From: a virus
Taxonomy: Duplodnaviria > Caudoviricetes
Reading direction: 5' to 3' (one strand)
Length of the DNA stretch: 24,870 bases
Virus record (IMG/VR): IMGVR_UViG_3300049164_000065
Span: 1 to 24,870 of that record
Shown: in pieces, positions 2,417 through 6,978 of the stretch
Layout of the letters: every line of letters begins with the position of its first letter
Position numbering within the stretch: the stretch's first letter is position 1
Notes under the pieces: model-generated
Database searches by the model: none
What the model was told of the DNA's origin: nothing
Seen by the model: the letters and a program-made list of their open reading frames with translations, nothing else
Translations under genes and position numbers: made by a program

Positions 2417-3889
2417 GTGTTCACCGACACGGAGAACCGGCTGGCCGGCACCGACAGCCCGGAGACGATGATCCGGAAGCTGCGCGCCCGCCTGGACAAG
2501 CGGGACGCCAAGGTCCAGGAGTGGAACTCCCTGTACGAGGGCGAGCGGCCGCTCAAGTACGCCAGCCCGGAGTTCAGCGAGCAGACCGGGGGGTTGTTCG
2601 ACGACTTCTCCGACAACTGGTGCAAGACGGTGCCGGACACGCTCCGCGAGCGCCTGGCCGTCATCGACTTCGAGGGTGAGGACGGCACCTCCGACAAAGA
2701 GGCGATGAAGGCCTGGAAGCGCACCCGCGCCGATGTCGAGGTGGGCCTGGCCATCCTGGACGCGCTGGTCGTAGCCCGGTCGCACGCCATGGTGTGGAAC
2801 CCCGGCGGCGAATCGGACATCACGTTCGTACCCGCCGGGCAGGCCATCGTGGACTACGCGCCCGGCACCCGCGGCGTGCGCCGGGCCGGCCTGAGGGTCT
2901 GGTCGGACGGCAGCCACGAGTTCGCCACCCTGTTCGTGCGGGCGATGGCGGGCAGCCCGGCCCGCGTGTACCGGCGTCAGCGCACCGTCAACGGCGGCGA
3001 GTGGGTGACACGGACGATCGGCCTGCGCACCTCCGAGCAGGTCGACATGGTCAACCCCATGGGCGACGAAGTCCCCCTGGTGGAGATCGCCAACCGAGCC
3101 CGCCTGCACGGCAAGCCCCAGTCGGAGATCGCCCAGGTAGCCCCCCTACAAGACGGCGTGAACACGTTGTGGGCGCACCTGTTCACCGCGGCCGACTTCG
3201 CTGCGCTGCCGCAGCGCGTGGTCCTCGGAATGGACCGGCCGACCAAGGACATCGTCGACCCCGAGACCGGCGACATCATCGACGTCGAGAACGTCCCGCT
3301 GGGGCAGTACTCCAAGGACCGCCTGCTCTGGCTGTCCAAGGTCGGCGCGAACATCGGCCAGTTCTCCGCCGCGGACCTCAACGCATACCTGAAGGTCATC
3401 GACCAGTGCGTGCGGCACATCGCCGCCCAGACCAGGACGCCCCCGCAGTACTTGCTGGGCGAGATGGCCAACATCGCCGCTGACGCACTGGAGTCCGCGG
3501 AGTCCGGCCTGGTCGCCAAGGCCATGGACAAGCAGCTGCACTTCGGCGCCGACCTGCGCGAGATCATGCGGCTGGAGGCCCTCGCCGCCGGCGACCCGGC
3601 CCGCGCGGCGTCCCTGTCCATGGGGCGCACCGTGTGGCGGGACGCCCAGTTCCGTTCCGTCGCCCAGTACGCGGACGCCCTGACGAAGTACAAGGCGATC
3701 GGCGTCCCCGACGAGGCCCTGTGGCGGATGATCCCCGGTGTCCGGCCCGAGCAGGTCGAGGAGTGGATCCGGCTGCGCGACGAGCAGGCCGCCGCCGCGG
3801 CGCAGGCCGCCGCCACGGCATTCGGCTCGTTCGGGCCGAAGGAGACCGACGCTGACGACGAGGACGACGCGGAGGGTGAAGCGGCATGA
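2417..3889 (+). CDS. Portal protein (SPP1 gp6-like, actinophage type)
   Basis: Follows terL, 490 aa. NWCKTVPDTLRERL, VPLVEIAN, SEI...PLQD, PQR, TPPQYL and ADALESAESGLVAK motifs match actinophage portals. SD GGAAGGGAGG. Confidence 0.9.
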   Translation: MFTDTENRLAGTDSPETMIRKLRARLDKRDAKVQEWNSLYEGERPLKYASPEFSEQTGGLFDDFSDNWCKTVPDTLRERLAVIDFEGEDGTSDKEAMKAWKRTRADVEVGLAILDALVVARSHAMVWNPGGESDITFVPAGQAIVDYAPGTRGVRRAGLRVWSDGSHEFATLFVRAMAGSPARVYRRQRTVNGGEWVTRTIGLRTSEQVDMVNPMGDEVPLVEIANRARLHGKPQSEIAQVAPLQDGVNTLWAHLFTAADFAALPQRVVLGMDRPTKDIVDPETGDIIDVENVPLGQYSKDRLLWLSKVGANIGQFSAADLNAYLKVIDQCVRHIAAQTRTPPQYLLGEMANIAADALESAESGLVAKAMDKQLHFGADLREIMRLEALAAGDPARAASLSMGRTVWRDAQFRSVAQYADALTKYKAIGVPDEALWRMIPGVRPEQVEEWIRLRDEQAAAAAQAAATAFGSFGPKETDADDEDDAEGEAA

Positions 3890-4866
3890 GCGACGCCGCT
3901 GACGCCCGCTACCGGCAAGTGCAGTCCCTCGCCCTGGCCGTCGTCGCCCGCGTGCAGTCCATCTGGTCGGGCCTGGCCGCAGAGAACATCCTGGCCTCCC
4001 TGCAAGGCGACCAGGGCGCGGCCATCCTGGACGCGGTCGTCGCCGGGCAACTCACCGCGGCGCAGGGCGCCCAGGCGTTCGTCGGCCAGGCCATGGCCGA
4101 GCGAGGCGCGGCCGCGCGGATGGCCGCCGAGGTCACCCCATCAGCGCTCGCCGGAGTCGCCTCCGACGGGCGGCCGCTGACGACGCTGCTGTACGTCCCC
4201 GCCATCACCACCTACACCACGCTGGCGGCCGGCGCCGACCCGGCCACCGCGCTGCTGGCGGGCATGAACCAGATGGCGCGGATGGTGGCCACACAGATCT
4301 CGGACACCTCGCGGGCCGCGACCCAGGTGGCGATGGTGACGCATCGCCGCTGCATCGCCTACGTGCGGGTGGTGAAGCTGCCGGCGTGCGGAAGGTGCAT
4401 CATCCTGGCCGGCCGTCAGTACAGCTACAGCACCGGCTTCCGGCGGCATCCGAAGTGCGACTGCGGCATGGACCCCATCGACATCGAGCGATGGGGCGAA
4501 GTGCCCAGCCCCGAGCGGCTGGTGGCGCAGATGAGCCCGCAGGAACAGCGGCGGCGACTCGGCGCGGCCGCCGTCGACGCCCTCGACAAGGGCGCGGACC
4601 TCGCGCAGGTCGTCAACGCCCGCAAGGGCATGCAGACGATGACCATCGACGGCCGCAAGGTGAAGACGACCACCGAGGCCACCACGCTGCGCGGCATCGC
4701 AGGCAAGCGCCTTGCCGTGGACCTGGGCGCGGACAAGCTCCCCCGGGAGCGCTACCGACGCTCCAACGCCCCGAGGCTCATGCCGGAGGAGATCCTCCAC
4801 CAGACCAAGGACAGCAGCCGTGACGAGCAGCTGAAGCTGCTGAAGCTGCACGGCTACATCTACTGA
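3886..4866 (+). CDS. Minor head / head morphogenesis protein (MuF-like)
   Basis: Lies between portal and scaffold with an ATGA overlap. Carries ACGRCIILAG and RHPKCDC Cys/His motifs typical of MuF-like proteins. No evident toxin extension. Confidence 0.75.
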   Translation: MSDAADARYRQVQSLALAVVARVQSIWSGLAAENILASLQGDQGAAILDAVVAGQLTAAQGAQAFVGQAMAERGAAARMAAEVTPSALAGVASDGRPLTTLLYVPAITTYTTLAAGADPATALLAGMNQMARMVATQISDTSRAATQVAMVTHRRCIAYVRVVKLPACGRCIILAGRQYSYSTGFRRHPKCDCGMDPIDIERWGEVPSPERLVAQMSPQEQRRRLGAAAVDALDKGADLAQVVNARKGMQTMTIDGRKVKTTTEATTLRGIAGKRLAVDLGADKLPRERYRRSNAPRLMPEEILHQTKDSSRDEQLKLLKLHGYIY

Positions 4867-4869
4867 CTT

Positions 4870-4938
4870 CCGGGCGCGAGGCCCGGGTGCGCGCGGCGCG
4901 ACGCCGCGCGGAACACCGAAGGAGGAGCGCGATGCTCC
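4870..4938 (+). promoter_or_regulatory. Three tandem RNA hairpins with GCGAN loops; the third sequesters the scaffold SD and start codon
   Basis: CCGGGC-GCGAG-GCCCGG (4870-4886), CGCGCGGC-GCGAC-GCCGCGCG (4890-4910) and GGAGC-GCGAT-GCTCC (4924-4938, ATG at 4932). Confidence 0.65.
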
Positions 4939-5639
4939 GCACACGCAAGAACACCCTGTCCACCATCGGCGGCTGGGCCCACCCGTACCCCACTGGCCCT
5001 TTCGACCCGTACCTCTACGCCGACGGAGGGGACGGCGGCGGCTCCGGATCCGGCAGCGGCAGCGGTGACGGGGGCGGCTCCGAAGGCGGGGACGGCGGCG
5101 ACGGCGGCTCCGGAGACGGGGACGACGACAAGCTGGGCGAGGGCGGCAGGAAGGCCCTACAGGCGGAGCGCGACGCCCGCCAGGCGGCCGAAGCCAAGGT
5201 CAAGGAGCTTGAGGCGAAGCTGTCCCGCAAGCCGAAGCCGGACGGCGGCAAGGGCGGCGACGGCAAGGGCGATCCTGCGCCGGACGTCGAGTCGATCAAG
5301 AAGGAGCTGCGCGAGGAGCTCACCGCTGACACCAACGCCCGCCTGGTGCGCGCCGAGGTGAAGGCCGCTGCGGCGGGCAAGCTCGCCGACCCGTCCGACG
5401 CCCCGAAGTTCATCGACCTGGCGAAGATCAAGATCGGCGAGGACGGGGAGCCCGACGCTAAGCAGATCAAGAAGGCGATCGAGGAACTGCTGAAGGACAA
5501 GCCGTACCTGGCCGCCAACGGCGCCGGGCAGGGCTGGGGCGACGTCGGCGGCGGCGGCCACTCCACCCCGCCGGCCGAAGTGGAGCCCGGCCTGGGGCGC
5601 CTGCGGCACGCCTACGCCACCGAGTCCAAGACCAAGTAA
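4932..5639 (+). CDS. Capsid scaffolding protein
   Basis: ATG 4932 after GAAGGAGGAG. Gly/Asp-rich N-terminus, LGEGGRKALQAER coiled coil, AAAAGKLADPSDA and ELLKDKPYLAA motifs typical of actinophage scaffolds. Directly precedes the capsid gene. Confidence 0.88.
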   Translation: MLRTRKNTLSTIGGWAHPYPTGPFDPYLYADGGDGGGSGSGSGSGDGGGSEGGDGGDGGSGDGDDDKLGEGGRKALQAERDARQAAEAKVKELEAKLSRKPKPDGGKGGDGKGDPAPDVESIKKELREELTADTNARLVRAEVKAAAAGKLADPSDAPKFIDLAKIKIGEDGEPDAKQIKKAIEELLKDKPYLAANGAGQGWGDVGGGGHSTPPAEVEPGLGRLRHAYATESKTK

Positions 5640-5681
5640 CCGGCCCGCGCAGCGGGTCTCACCTGTGAAGGAGGGCCCGCT

Positions 5682-6629
5682 GTGGCCGTCACTCTCGTCG
5701 AGGCAGCCAAGCTGTCTCAGACCAGCCTTCAGCGCGGCGTCATCGAGACGTTCGTGCAGGAGTCCAGCATCCTGGACCGAATCCCGTTCCTGACCATCGA
5801 GGGCAACGCCTACGCCTACAACGAGGAGGCCACGCTGCCCGGCGTCGCCTTCCGTTCGGTCAACGAGGCGTACACCGAGTCGACCGGCACGGTGAACCAG
5901 AAGTCCGAGTCTCTGGTGATCCTCGGTGGCGACGCCGACGTGGACAAGTTCATCGTCCGCACCCGCGGCAACCTGAACGACCAGCGCGCCACGCAGACCC
6001 GCATGAAGGTCAAGGCCGCCTCCTACAAGTTCCAGGACGCCTTCTTCAACGGCGACGTCGCCGTGGACCCCAAGGGCTTCGACGGCCTGAAGAAGAGGCT
6101 GGTGGGCGCCCAGGTCATCGACGCCGCGACCAACGGCATGGGCCCGGTCGCCGGGGGACACGACTTCTTCGACGTCCTGGACACGGCCATTGCGCGCGTG
6201 CCCGGCGTCAACGGCTCCAACGGCGCCATCTACGCCAACTCCGCGGCGATCGCCCGCATCAAGTCCTCGGCTCGGCGCCTGGGCGGGGTGGAGATGGTCC
6301 GCGAGGCCCTGACCCAGAAGATGATCCCGACCTACAACGGGATCCCCCTGCTGGACCCGGGCCAGACGGCGGCCGGCGCCGACATCCTGCCGCAGACCGA
6401 GACCCAGGGCACCGCGGCCGGTACGGCATCGTCGATCTACGTCGTGAAGTTCGGCCAGGACGAGGGCGACAAGGCCGTCACTGGGCTGACCAACGGCGGC
6501 GTCCAGGCCTACGACCTGGGCGAGCTTCAGGAGAAGCCCGCGTACCGCACGCGCATCGAGTTCTACACCGGCCTCGCTGTTTTCGGCGGCAAGGCCGCCG
6601 CCCGCATCCGCGGCGTCCTGAACACCTGA
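5682..6629 (+). CDS. Major capsid protein (HK97 fold)
   Basis: 315 aa after the scaffold, strong SD (GAAGGAGG). ESSILDRIPF, FFNGD...PKGFDGL, YNGIP and C-terminal GLAVFGGKAAARIRGV pattern of HK97-fold capsids. Confidence 0.9.
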   Translation: MAVTLVEAAKLSQTSLQRGVIETFVQESSILDRIPFLTIEGNAYAYNEEATLPGVAFRSVNEAYTESTGTVNQKSESLVILGGDADVDKFIVRTRGNLNDQRATQTRMKVKAASYKFQDAFFNGDVAVDPKGFDGLKKRLVGAQVIDAATNGMGPVAGGHDFFDVLDTAIARVPGVNGSNGAIYANSAAIARIKSSARRLGGVEMVREALTQKMIPTYNGIPLLDPGQTAAGADILPQTETQGTAAGTASSIYVVKFGQDEGDKAVTGLTNGGVQAYDLGELQEKPAYRTRIEFYTGLAVFGGKAAARIRGVLNT

Positions 6630-6648: not shown

Positions 6649-6978
6649 ATGGCTGCGAGCAAGAACACCGGTACGCCGGACGAGACCAGGCTGGACGAGC
6701 ACCTCGACAAGCCGTCGACCACCGCCCCGGGCGACGGGCCGGCGGACACCACCGATCCCGACGAGCGCGCATCCTCGGCAACGCCCGACAAGGGCGCGGC
6801 GGCCCGGGCCGGGCACGGCACCGTCAACGCCGTCGTGCCGCTGCCGAAGAGGAAGGCCGCGGCGGCCCGCCAGGGCAAGGACCGCACCGAGACCTACAGC
6901 GCGGTGAAGCCCGACGGGACCGAGGTGACCGTCGAGCGGAACATCGAGACGGGCGAGTCGTCCGTCACGGGGGGCTGA
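6649..6978 (+). CDS. Small virion-associated protein of unknown function
   Basis: SD GAGAGGAG, good codon bias, fills the gap between capsid and adaptor. Low-complexity N-terminus and short beta-rich C-terminus. Confidence 0.7.
   Translation: MAASKNTGTPDETRLDEHLDKPSTTAPGDGPADTTDPDERASSATPDKGAAARAGHGTVNAVVPLPKRKAAAARQGKDRTETYSAVKPDGTEVTVERNIETGESSVTGG

Follow-up and report, generated by a model that had tools for sequence, protein, structure and literature searches.

The three hairpins at the start of the scaffold gene in the window, that is, the whole stretch of 24,870 bases that was analysed (virus record IMGVR_UViG_3300049164_000065; Duplodnaviria, Caudoviricetes), are a real RNA element that has no match in Rfam. 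The comparison with related loci makes it probable that these hairpins are copies of a conserved GC(A/G)AN element placed on the scaffold start, and that the scaffold protein uses a helix around Arg80 to bind the loops and represses its own translation. From these comparisons we infer repression and, with it, control of the scaffold:capsid ratio.

The hairpins of the window and the conserved element

The window encodes the head and tail module of a siphovirus, with small and large terminase, an SPP1-type portal, a VG15-family gene, the scaffold and the major capsid protein (Table 1). The stop of the VG15-family gene precedes hairpin 1 by 3 nt. The closest named homologs of the scaffold are of Streptomyces origin, and many of its homologs carry PF06810, for which the window copy itself scores below the cut-off. 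Structure searches with the scaffold returned nothing at E up to 0.001 and found no solved relative of the family, an Atlas search with residues 60-105 gave leads that were all under 0.9, and no RNA holder was among the entries listed. In the window (4932-5030) and in many homologs, the N-terminal extension of the scaffold ends in an aromatic/hydrophobic run followed by a Gly/Asp-rich linker (...PYLYADGG in the window). In Paenibacillus copies the extension reads LNLQLFAE, a site of the host Prp protease, and it is possible that the extension is a cleaved leader peptide.

Table 1. Features of the head-gene region of the window
Feature	Position	Strand	Remarks
VG15-family upstream gene	3886..4866	+	PF25310; phrog_1522 'head maturation protease'
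Hairpin 1 (stem of 6 bp; loop GCGAG, 4876-4880)	4870..4886	+	perfect stem, C-G closing pair
Hairpin 2 (stem of 8 bp; loop GCGAC, 4898-4902)	4890..4910	+	perfect stem, C-G closing pair
Shine-Dalgarno (SD) AAGGAGG	4919..4925	+	last two G belong to the 5' side of the hairpin 3 stem
Hairpin 3 (stem of 5 bp; loop GCGAU, 4929-4933)	4924..4938	+	C-G closing pair; overlaps SD end, spacer and AUG 4932-4934
Head scaffolding protein, 235 aa	4932..5639	+	phrog_4708 E 1.9e-35; PF06810 21.2 bits, below cut-off 35
Scaffold codons 68-98: cap L-G-x-x-G-+-+-A-L and predicted helix 70-98	5133..5225	+	pLDDT 84-90 for residues 71-90; likely RNA-binding part
Arg80 codon; the residue covaries with letter 3 of the loop, Arg where this is G and Lys where it is A	5169..5171	+	column comparison
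Major capsid protein	5682..6629	+	phrog_212, PF20911

The first-pass annotation had described three stems that share a loop and a C-G closure, and all three are found as described, with the AUG where it had been placed. They are the only Watson-Crick stems of at least 5 bp with a GCGAN loop on both strands of the window, and all lie within 69 bases; perfect stems of at least 5 bp with a 5-nt loop of any sequence number 64. The folding energy of the leader is ordinary for its composition (z -0.55), which indicates that the signal is the repeated loop and not stability, and whole-leader energy was discarded as an uninformative indicator. The same annotation had considered both SD and AUG to be buried. 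This holds in part: hairpin 3, with an energy of -7.0 kcal/mol when folded alone, has 4924-4928 and the last base of the AUG, its G, in paired positions and the A and U in the loop, but positions 4919-4923 of the SD are predicted to be 42-98% unpaired. The pairing of hairpin 1 varies with the stretch that is folded, with a probability of about 1.0 in two stretches and 0.17 in a third. An Rfam search of the window at E up to 1 gave a single chance match elsewhere in the window, and 20 scaffold loci searched at the gathering score gave no match. Two lone hairpins that require a G-U pair occur elsewhere in the window and may be chance, one with a non-cognate GCAAG loop at 2355-2369, about 50 nt 5' of the portal start, and one with a GCGAG loop at 6948-6962, ahead of the adaptor gene (6980).

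Leaders were collected with a scaffold profile and no RNA information, which gave 126 loci, 125 of them with a scaffold match and 117 with a callable start; 88 leaders were kept after the removal of near-copies and of loci with less than 120 bases of leader. At least one GC(A/G)AN hairpin with a stem of at least 3 bp is present in 84 of them and at least two in 62, and the 155 hairpins divide into 119 GCAA and 36 GCGA. The reverse strand of the same leaders has 8 hairpins in 8 of 88 and capsid starts have a hairpin in 2 of 83, with no case of two or more in either control. Dinucleotide shuffling yields 5.5 leaders with a hairpin (maximum 12) and 0.14 with two or more (maximum 2).

Pairing around the loop was also seen with cognate loop words that were not selected for it (n=254), in which flank positions 1-3 pair in 93, 93 and 85% of cases, with all four Watson-Crick pair types from position 2 outward; for non-cognate words (n=43) the values are 40, 33 and 26%. 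In a sequence-only alignment of 30 leaders, RNAalifold recovered two hairpins with changes on both sides in 6 of 7 pairs, amounting to 39 cells vs 12.0 in shuffled alignments and at most 18 in slid ones, and in ten close relatives 4 of 19 pairs have changed on both sides. The proposal that a fixed loop on unrelated stems points to selection on RNA structure is thus supported by comparison, both by the 84 of 88 leaders vs 5.5 after shuffling and by the compensatory changes in the stems. The constancy of loop and closing pair proposed for the window was confirmed, but in a wider form, since the loop is a GC(A/G)AN family, in which letter 2 is always C, and the closure is mostly C-G and also A-U (192 and 31 of the 254 cognate words). 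The counts of G-U vs A-C give RNA no advantage (22 v 29 in one count, 36 v 40 in another). Among loci whose scaffold bears the cap motif of Table 1, the last hairpin contains the SD purines in 99 of 123, and in 19 of 40 loci of the Arg type the most constant copy extends over the AUG.

A covariance model (R1) ranks 4839-4937 first in the window with 37.3 bits, a score that comes partly from the VG15 coding tail, and proved a poor descriptor, given that Reptar3000 reached only E 0.38 and AGM1 was missed; it is given no weight here. A loose motif-only scan for triple words, of which 120 of about 1200 loci were inspected, gave at least two real hairpins in 17 loci, one in 24 and none in 79, and was rejected as a detector because its matches are mostly chance. 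In agreement with the profile-based set, eight of the 17 multi-hairpin loci belong to the start of a scaffold or scaffold-like gene. The hairpins are in the leader in 3 of these and a short way into the coding sequence in 5, and for three of the five the assignment to a scaffold goes by appearance only. A literature search, with subscription journals largely outside its coverage, found no description of the hairpin motif or of a scaffold helix-hairpin code.

Cognate copies also occur inside genes, where stems of at least 4 bp were counted against synonymous shuffles. In the scaffold coding sequences, the 43 Arg loci have 39 GCGAN hairpins vs 6.0 after shuffling (maximum 12) and the 80 Lys loci have 86 GCAAN hairpins vs 9.3 (maximum 19), while non-cognate loops number 1 vs 2.0 expected and 7 vs 10.1, respectively, and a clade of cap-less scaffolds has 5 vs 3.6. 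In the VG15 coding sequences the cognate copies are 32 vs 6.7 and 24 vs 6.8, and 1 vs 2.9 for the clade without the cap. Two sites in VG15 show coordinated changes at the third positions of codons, by which pairing is kept in most rows. There is no enrichment in the capsid gene. The window itself has no in-gene copy at this stem length, VG15 included, and its relatives have extra cognate copies in VG15.

Hairpins of the GC(A/G)AN type were also seen over the SD or start of small-terminase-like genes, identified by eye, in the L258 match region and in L476 and L490; in the latter two records, where the loops are GCAAN, phrog_4708 found no scaffold. These may possibly represent a wider regulon. 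In L188 (641-712) three hairpins with GCGAG or GCGAA loops lie about 90 nt 5' of a long gene for a capsid-like protein that is extended at its N-terminus, and the scaffold-profile search found no separate scaffold in this record or in that of L282; a scaffold domain fused to the capsid-like protein might be the reader in L188. In L177, L191, L283, L282 and L285 the array is located within the low-complexity N-terminal coding sequence of the scaffold, in repeated Gly-Ala-[Arg/Thr/Lys]-Pro codons. In the unrelated-looking contig L227, a GCGAT hairpin occurs in three identical copies within an array of non-coding repeats.

The scaffold helix and the third letter of the loop

The feature common to the loci that bear hairpins is a scaffold segment, L-G-x-x-G-+-+-A-L-x-x-[E/M]-[R/K], which forms the predicted start of a helix (residues 70-98). 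Gly72 and Ala75 are invariant, and basic residues are found at 73, 74 and 80 and mostly at 83-84. In the first set, 84 of the 88 loci have a single loop type. All 16 loci with GCGA have Arg at residue 80, and 67 of the 68 with GCAA have Lys there, the sole exception being a Glu in a scaffold that has no cap. No other of the 174 scaffold columns matches the loop type as well.

Held-out loci were obtained from capsid-anchored, genome and pattern searches; 196 were examined, 127 had a scaffold match, and 76 were non-redundant. Many leaders of this set had been seen beforehand and the helices had not, except for ten pattern loci; L033 was excluded as a duplicate of L034, four starts were re-called, and 18 scaffolds were added. 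These loci gave 22 Arg-GCGA and 10 Lys-GCAA rows and no discordant single-loop row. The exceptions are 3 Arg rows with both loops, with a GCAAC copy within the VG15 coding end, and a hairpin is missing in 3 Arg and 3 Lys rows, two of these six being false matches of the regular expression. A second blind set was drawn with the GCAA RNA pattern alone (120 of about 590 loci, 114 distinct rows). Its 48 rows with two hairpins comprise 34 with cap and Lys, 31 of them new, none with cap and Arg, 4 with cap-less scaffold matches and 10 others. A single prediction was also borne out: the L258 record, in which GCGAT hairpins sit at the start of a terminase-like gene, has an Arg-type scaffold with GCGAT hairpins of its own (L445:1374-1415).

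Over 124 labelled loci, residue 80 gives the loop type with a balanced accuracy of 0.975, and both misses are cap-less. On the same rows, the best of 243 VG15 columns reaches 0.836 vs 0.973 for residue 80, and the best of 316 capsid columns 0.883 vs 0.968 (42 rows). The GCGAN loop is also found with another capsid family (L169) and where VG15 is absent (L169, L177 and L191), the portal being directly 5' of the scaffold in L177 and L191. It had been suggested that free scaffold or another head protein reads the array. Covariation at residue 80 and the co-loss described below favour the scaffold, and the capsid and the VG15/MuF-like protein are disfavoured by their worse columns and by a loop that is common to different capsid families and to loci that lack VG15. 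The basic N-terminus MLRTRK, named at first as the binding part, appears dispensable, since hairpins are retained before scaffolds with acidic N-termini (Rowa, SF1, Reptar3000 and L169) and the residue that covaries lies in an internal helix. The scaffold is thus the likely reader of the loops.

In the Arg loci the codons over Arg80 spell GCGA in 25 of 43, and a hairpin is formed there in only 4. A hairpin copy written into the codons over Arg80 was discarded as the general cause on the grounds that 18 of 43 Arg loci have no GCGA at this place, that the Lys80 codons are AAG/AAA, and that 35 of 39 in-gene copies lie elsewhere. The Arg/Lys rule is limited to cap-bearing scaffolds: GCGAN also occurs before scaffolds with other helices (L027, L070, L282 and L285) and GCAAN 5' of scaffolds of the W class.

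Kinship was examined with trees that are quick and have long branches. On a VG15 tree of 99 cap-bearing rows the loop label needs 10 changes, 5 of them forced by starred branches; the first tree forced just 1. In a VG15 tree of 109 rows with 8 independent pairs, residue 80 follows the loop in 6.8 and opposes it in none (median p 0.016). The number of pairs that follow is 6.2 for residue 79 and about 0.5-2.7 for VG15 columns, among those listed. A tree of the scaffold C-terminal part holds only 5 starred independent pairs, 4.8 of them concordant (p 0.0625). The leader and the helix are 200-300 nt apart, and the swap of both as one module would give the same picture; these trees therefore show tight co-inheritance and not contact.

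The element is also lost together with the cap. In 16 Streptomycetaceae-type loci with the same capsid family and no cap, a clade chosen by eye, a leader hairpin is present in 1 of 16, and these close relatives retain an intact-looking head module. In one cap-less locus, L029, a remnant that does not pair, GGAGCGAT, lies after the stop of VG15 and ahead of the scaffold start. The cap-less clade has 14 short GCGAN stems on the portal side, mostly at two common sites, about 1150 nt (L036, L091, L095, L100, L101 and L108) and about 1750 nt (L021, L035, L100, L101, L104 and L107) 5' of the scaffold start, which may be a relic or protein-coded. Among named phages, the mycobacteriophage Reptar3000 has cap and Arg with three GCGAN hairpins, and the mycobacteriophages TM4, Anaya and Job42 have an FTQ-type helix and no such hairpins; the TM4 scaffold is 84.5% identical to that of L169 over residues 65-167. 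Rowa and SF1 combine cap and Arg with one GCGAT hairpin on the SD, and phiSASD1, Dubu and AGM1 combine cap and Lys with GCAAN.

Proposed control of scaffold synthesis and its alternatives

In the proposed mechanism, free scaffold would bind the loops directly through helix 68-92, with residue 80 reading letter 3 of a loop that could fold as a GNRA whose 3' base is left free. Hairpin 3, weak by itself, would be stabilised by the bound scaffold, the ribosome would be kept from loading, and the additional hairpin copies would add avidity. Scaffold bound in the procapsid would be unavailable, so that the block would be released and synthesis would follow the supply of capsid protein, as has been reported for P22.

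SD blocking alone does not account for the copies that lie 500-800 nt upstream or far inside the coding sequence. The scaffold could bind and yet have a main role other than repression, whether the mRNA with its several sites serves as a platform on which scaffold (and portal) collect to nucleate the procapsid, or its decay is changed, or translation is activated. The cognate copies throughout the scaffold and VG15 coding sequences, far from starts and with none enriched in the capsid gene, would suit a platform, as would the hairpins at three small-terminase-like starts and a portal/mRNA hypothesis mentioned as unproven in the accessible part of PMC5529062. Such a role is nonetheless rather unlikely, given that the most constant copy lies on the SD purines and the AUG, that close relatives have lost element and cap with their head module still intact-looking, and that the window is devoid of in-gene copies. 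That another phage or host protein reads the loops, residue 80 following by linkage, has a low probability. The end of VG15 is nearer to the hairpins than the helix is and VG15 predicts worse, the same loop is kept with different capsid families and in the loci that lack VG15, and all copies in leader and gene switch together; Streptomyces phages include both loop types, and a single host strain has phages with the array (Reptar3000) and without it (Anaya and Job42). Linkage is nevertheless favoured by the physical closeness of leader and helix, by the range of the covariation tests, which covered genes within about 2-3 kb and had terminase and early genes outside, and by the occurrence of the same loops with other helix classes.

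Hairpins with no reader at all, which would tune translation or its coupling to the upstream gene through the stability of GNRA-like loops, would leave unexplained the constant C at letter 2, the absence of GCGA/GCAA mixing within a phage, the tracking of a protein residue and the selected cognate copies within coding sequences. This account is very improbable, even though GCGA and GCAA are both GNRA sequences, hairpin 1 begins just past the stop of VG15, a stop that in Rowa/SF1-like phages is itself covered in part by the SD hairpin. The last alternative is an element that acts as DNA, a cruciform or a single-stranded hairpin read in packaging or transcription. The G-T pairs on the sense strand are not favoured over A-C, which is compatible with DNA, and the arms change freely, which excludes a double-stranded palindromic site; with a loop confined to the sense strand (155 vs 8 hairpins) and placed on SD and AUG, and with no promoter-like match near the hairpins of the window, an action as DNA is scarcely credible.

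The preferred reading, autogenous repression by the scaffold, is close to what is described for P22, where the scaffold is autogenously regulated and its N-terminus is implicated (accessible parts of PMC5529062 and bioRxiv 10.1101/2022.12.13.520362). As with P22 gene 8, the scaffold of the window would limit its own synthesis post-transcriptionally through an N-terminal part that is apart from the coat-binding end. The accessible P22 literature names no RNA element or binding residue, whereas the loci analysed here offer, from sequence alone, a defined repeated hairpin and a candidate specificity residue. As expected of a P22-type operator, the element is placed on the translation start of the scaffold. 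The window element most likely works like the autogenous control of P22.

Structured RNAs have been catalogued near genes of the family PF06810 (Phage_scaffold, formerly Phage_GP20). In its accessible part, PMC10690425 records Rfam GP20-a (RF02991), GP20-b (RF03003) and six more candidate RNAs, all of them 5' of GP20 genes, gives no mechanism, and names Firmicutes as hosts or gives none. The catalogued candidates DNAVirus_1060, 1362 and 1369 have Streptomyces hosts. The catalogued RNAs are candidate cis-regulatory structures directly 5' of Phage_scaffold family genes, a position that the window element may share, with a scaffold at 21.2 bits for PF06810 (cut-off 35) and many homologs that carry the family. 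Neither model matched the genome of the window at E up to 10; GP20-a had no match in 151 genomes either and is hence devoid of a positive control. Five GP20-b leaders have no GC(A/G)AN loop, and inspection of their scaffolds by eye showed no cap motif. GP20 is not mentioned in the PMC5737381 main text. The window element is not a member of the Rfam GP20 families.

The lambda N peptide binds boxB as a helix. The lambdoid N-boxB systems, as presented in the accessible part of PMC12550061, resemble the proposed element, which would likewise combine a GNRA-like pentaloop on a short stem with a basic peptide reader. By their sequence, the window loops fit a GNRA with a 3' free base, a variant listed in that source (n5-n6 insertion type, with RNase MRP as example), in which the free base follows the A, unlike P22 boxB, which loops out an inner base. 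The function proposed here is also different, translational control and not antitermination, and no sense-strand terminator-like site was found in 4500-5800. In RNA phages such as MS2, the coat protein binds a hairpin over the start codon and represses translation. The likeness is that a capsid-assembly protein is the proposed binder of a start-codon hairpin; the reader here would however be the scaffold, acting on its own gene and on several copies, the capsid columns are worse, and unrelated capsid families have the same loop. CsrA/RsmA sites present GGA in the loop, whereas the window loops are GCGAN and their GGA is in the stem.

Other helix-loop pairings and significance

Scaffolds with other helices also occur with repeated loops or words of their own. 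A W..EARKWE helix is found with a GCAY tetraloop in 8 of 9 loci, compared with 2 of the 43 Arg loci and 4 of the 80 Lys loci, in a comparison of few rows with classes made partly by eye. An E-A-A-type helix is found with a CCAGG/CNNGGAG word that overlaps the SD in 10 of 10 loci, again in few rows with classes made partly by eye. Pairings of other helix classes with other repeated loops are seen in the leaders of L115, L116, L148, L410, L435, L437, L439 and L441, in Raleigh (L595:1100-1200), in L040, L080, L147 and L164, and in TM4 (L588:5284-5383). The FTQ-type helix occurs with ACGG words, the count of which was not specific, and ACGG was rejected as a marker of this class. In L117-L145 and L156-L168, which include many Streptomyces genomes, the capsid homolog has 61-66% identity and the genes 5' of it are, by automatic ORF call, small terminase-like or Cys-rich HNH-like and not scaffold; this arrangement is possibly a different type of element.

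A broader proposal has about an even chance of being correct: the scaffolds of tailed phages may be a large unrecognised family of sequence-specific RNA-binders, in which a swappable N-terminal helix would read a matching loop (cap with Arg GCGAN, cap with Lys GCAAN, W..EARKWE the GCAY tetraloop, others CCAGGAG or ACGG). Helix and operator would be exchanged or lost as a module, providing a private feedback on the translation of head genes, perhaps including the small terminase.

In the accessible literature, the balance of scaffold and capsid so far rests on P22 genetics from 1985, with no RNA site or binding residue named, and the structured RNAs 5' of scaffold ('GP20') genes have been catalogued without a reader. 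Here an RNA element comes with a candidate reader and with one residue-base pair, which makes the model testable by a single reciprocal swap, and the element is present in the cultured phages Rowa, SF1, Dubu, phiSASD1, Reptar3000 and AGM1, the hosts of which are harmless. If the model is true, a short helix with a one-residue specificity switch would be a new tool for RNA tethering. If the broad helix-loop code is true, it would provide a mechanism for orphan motifs such as GP20-a/b, as well as orthogonal peptide-hairpin pairs.
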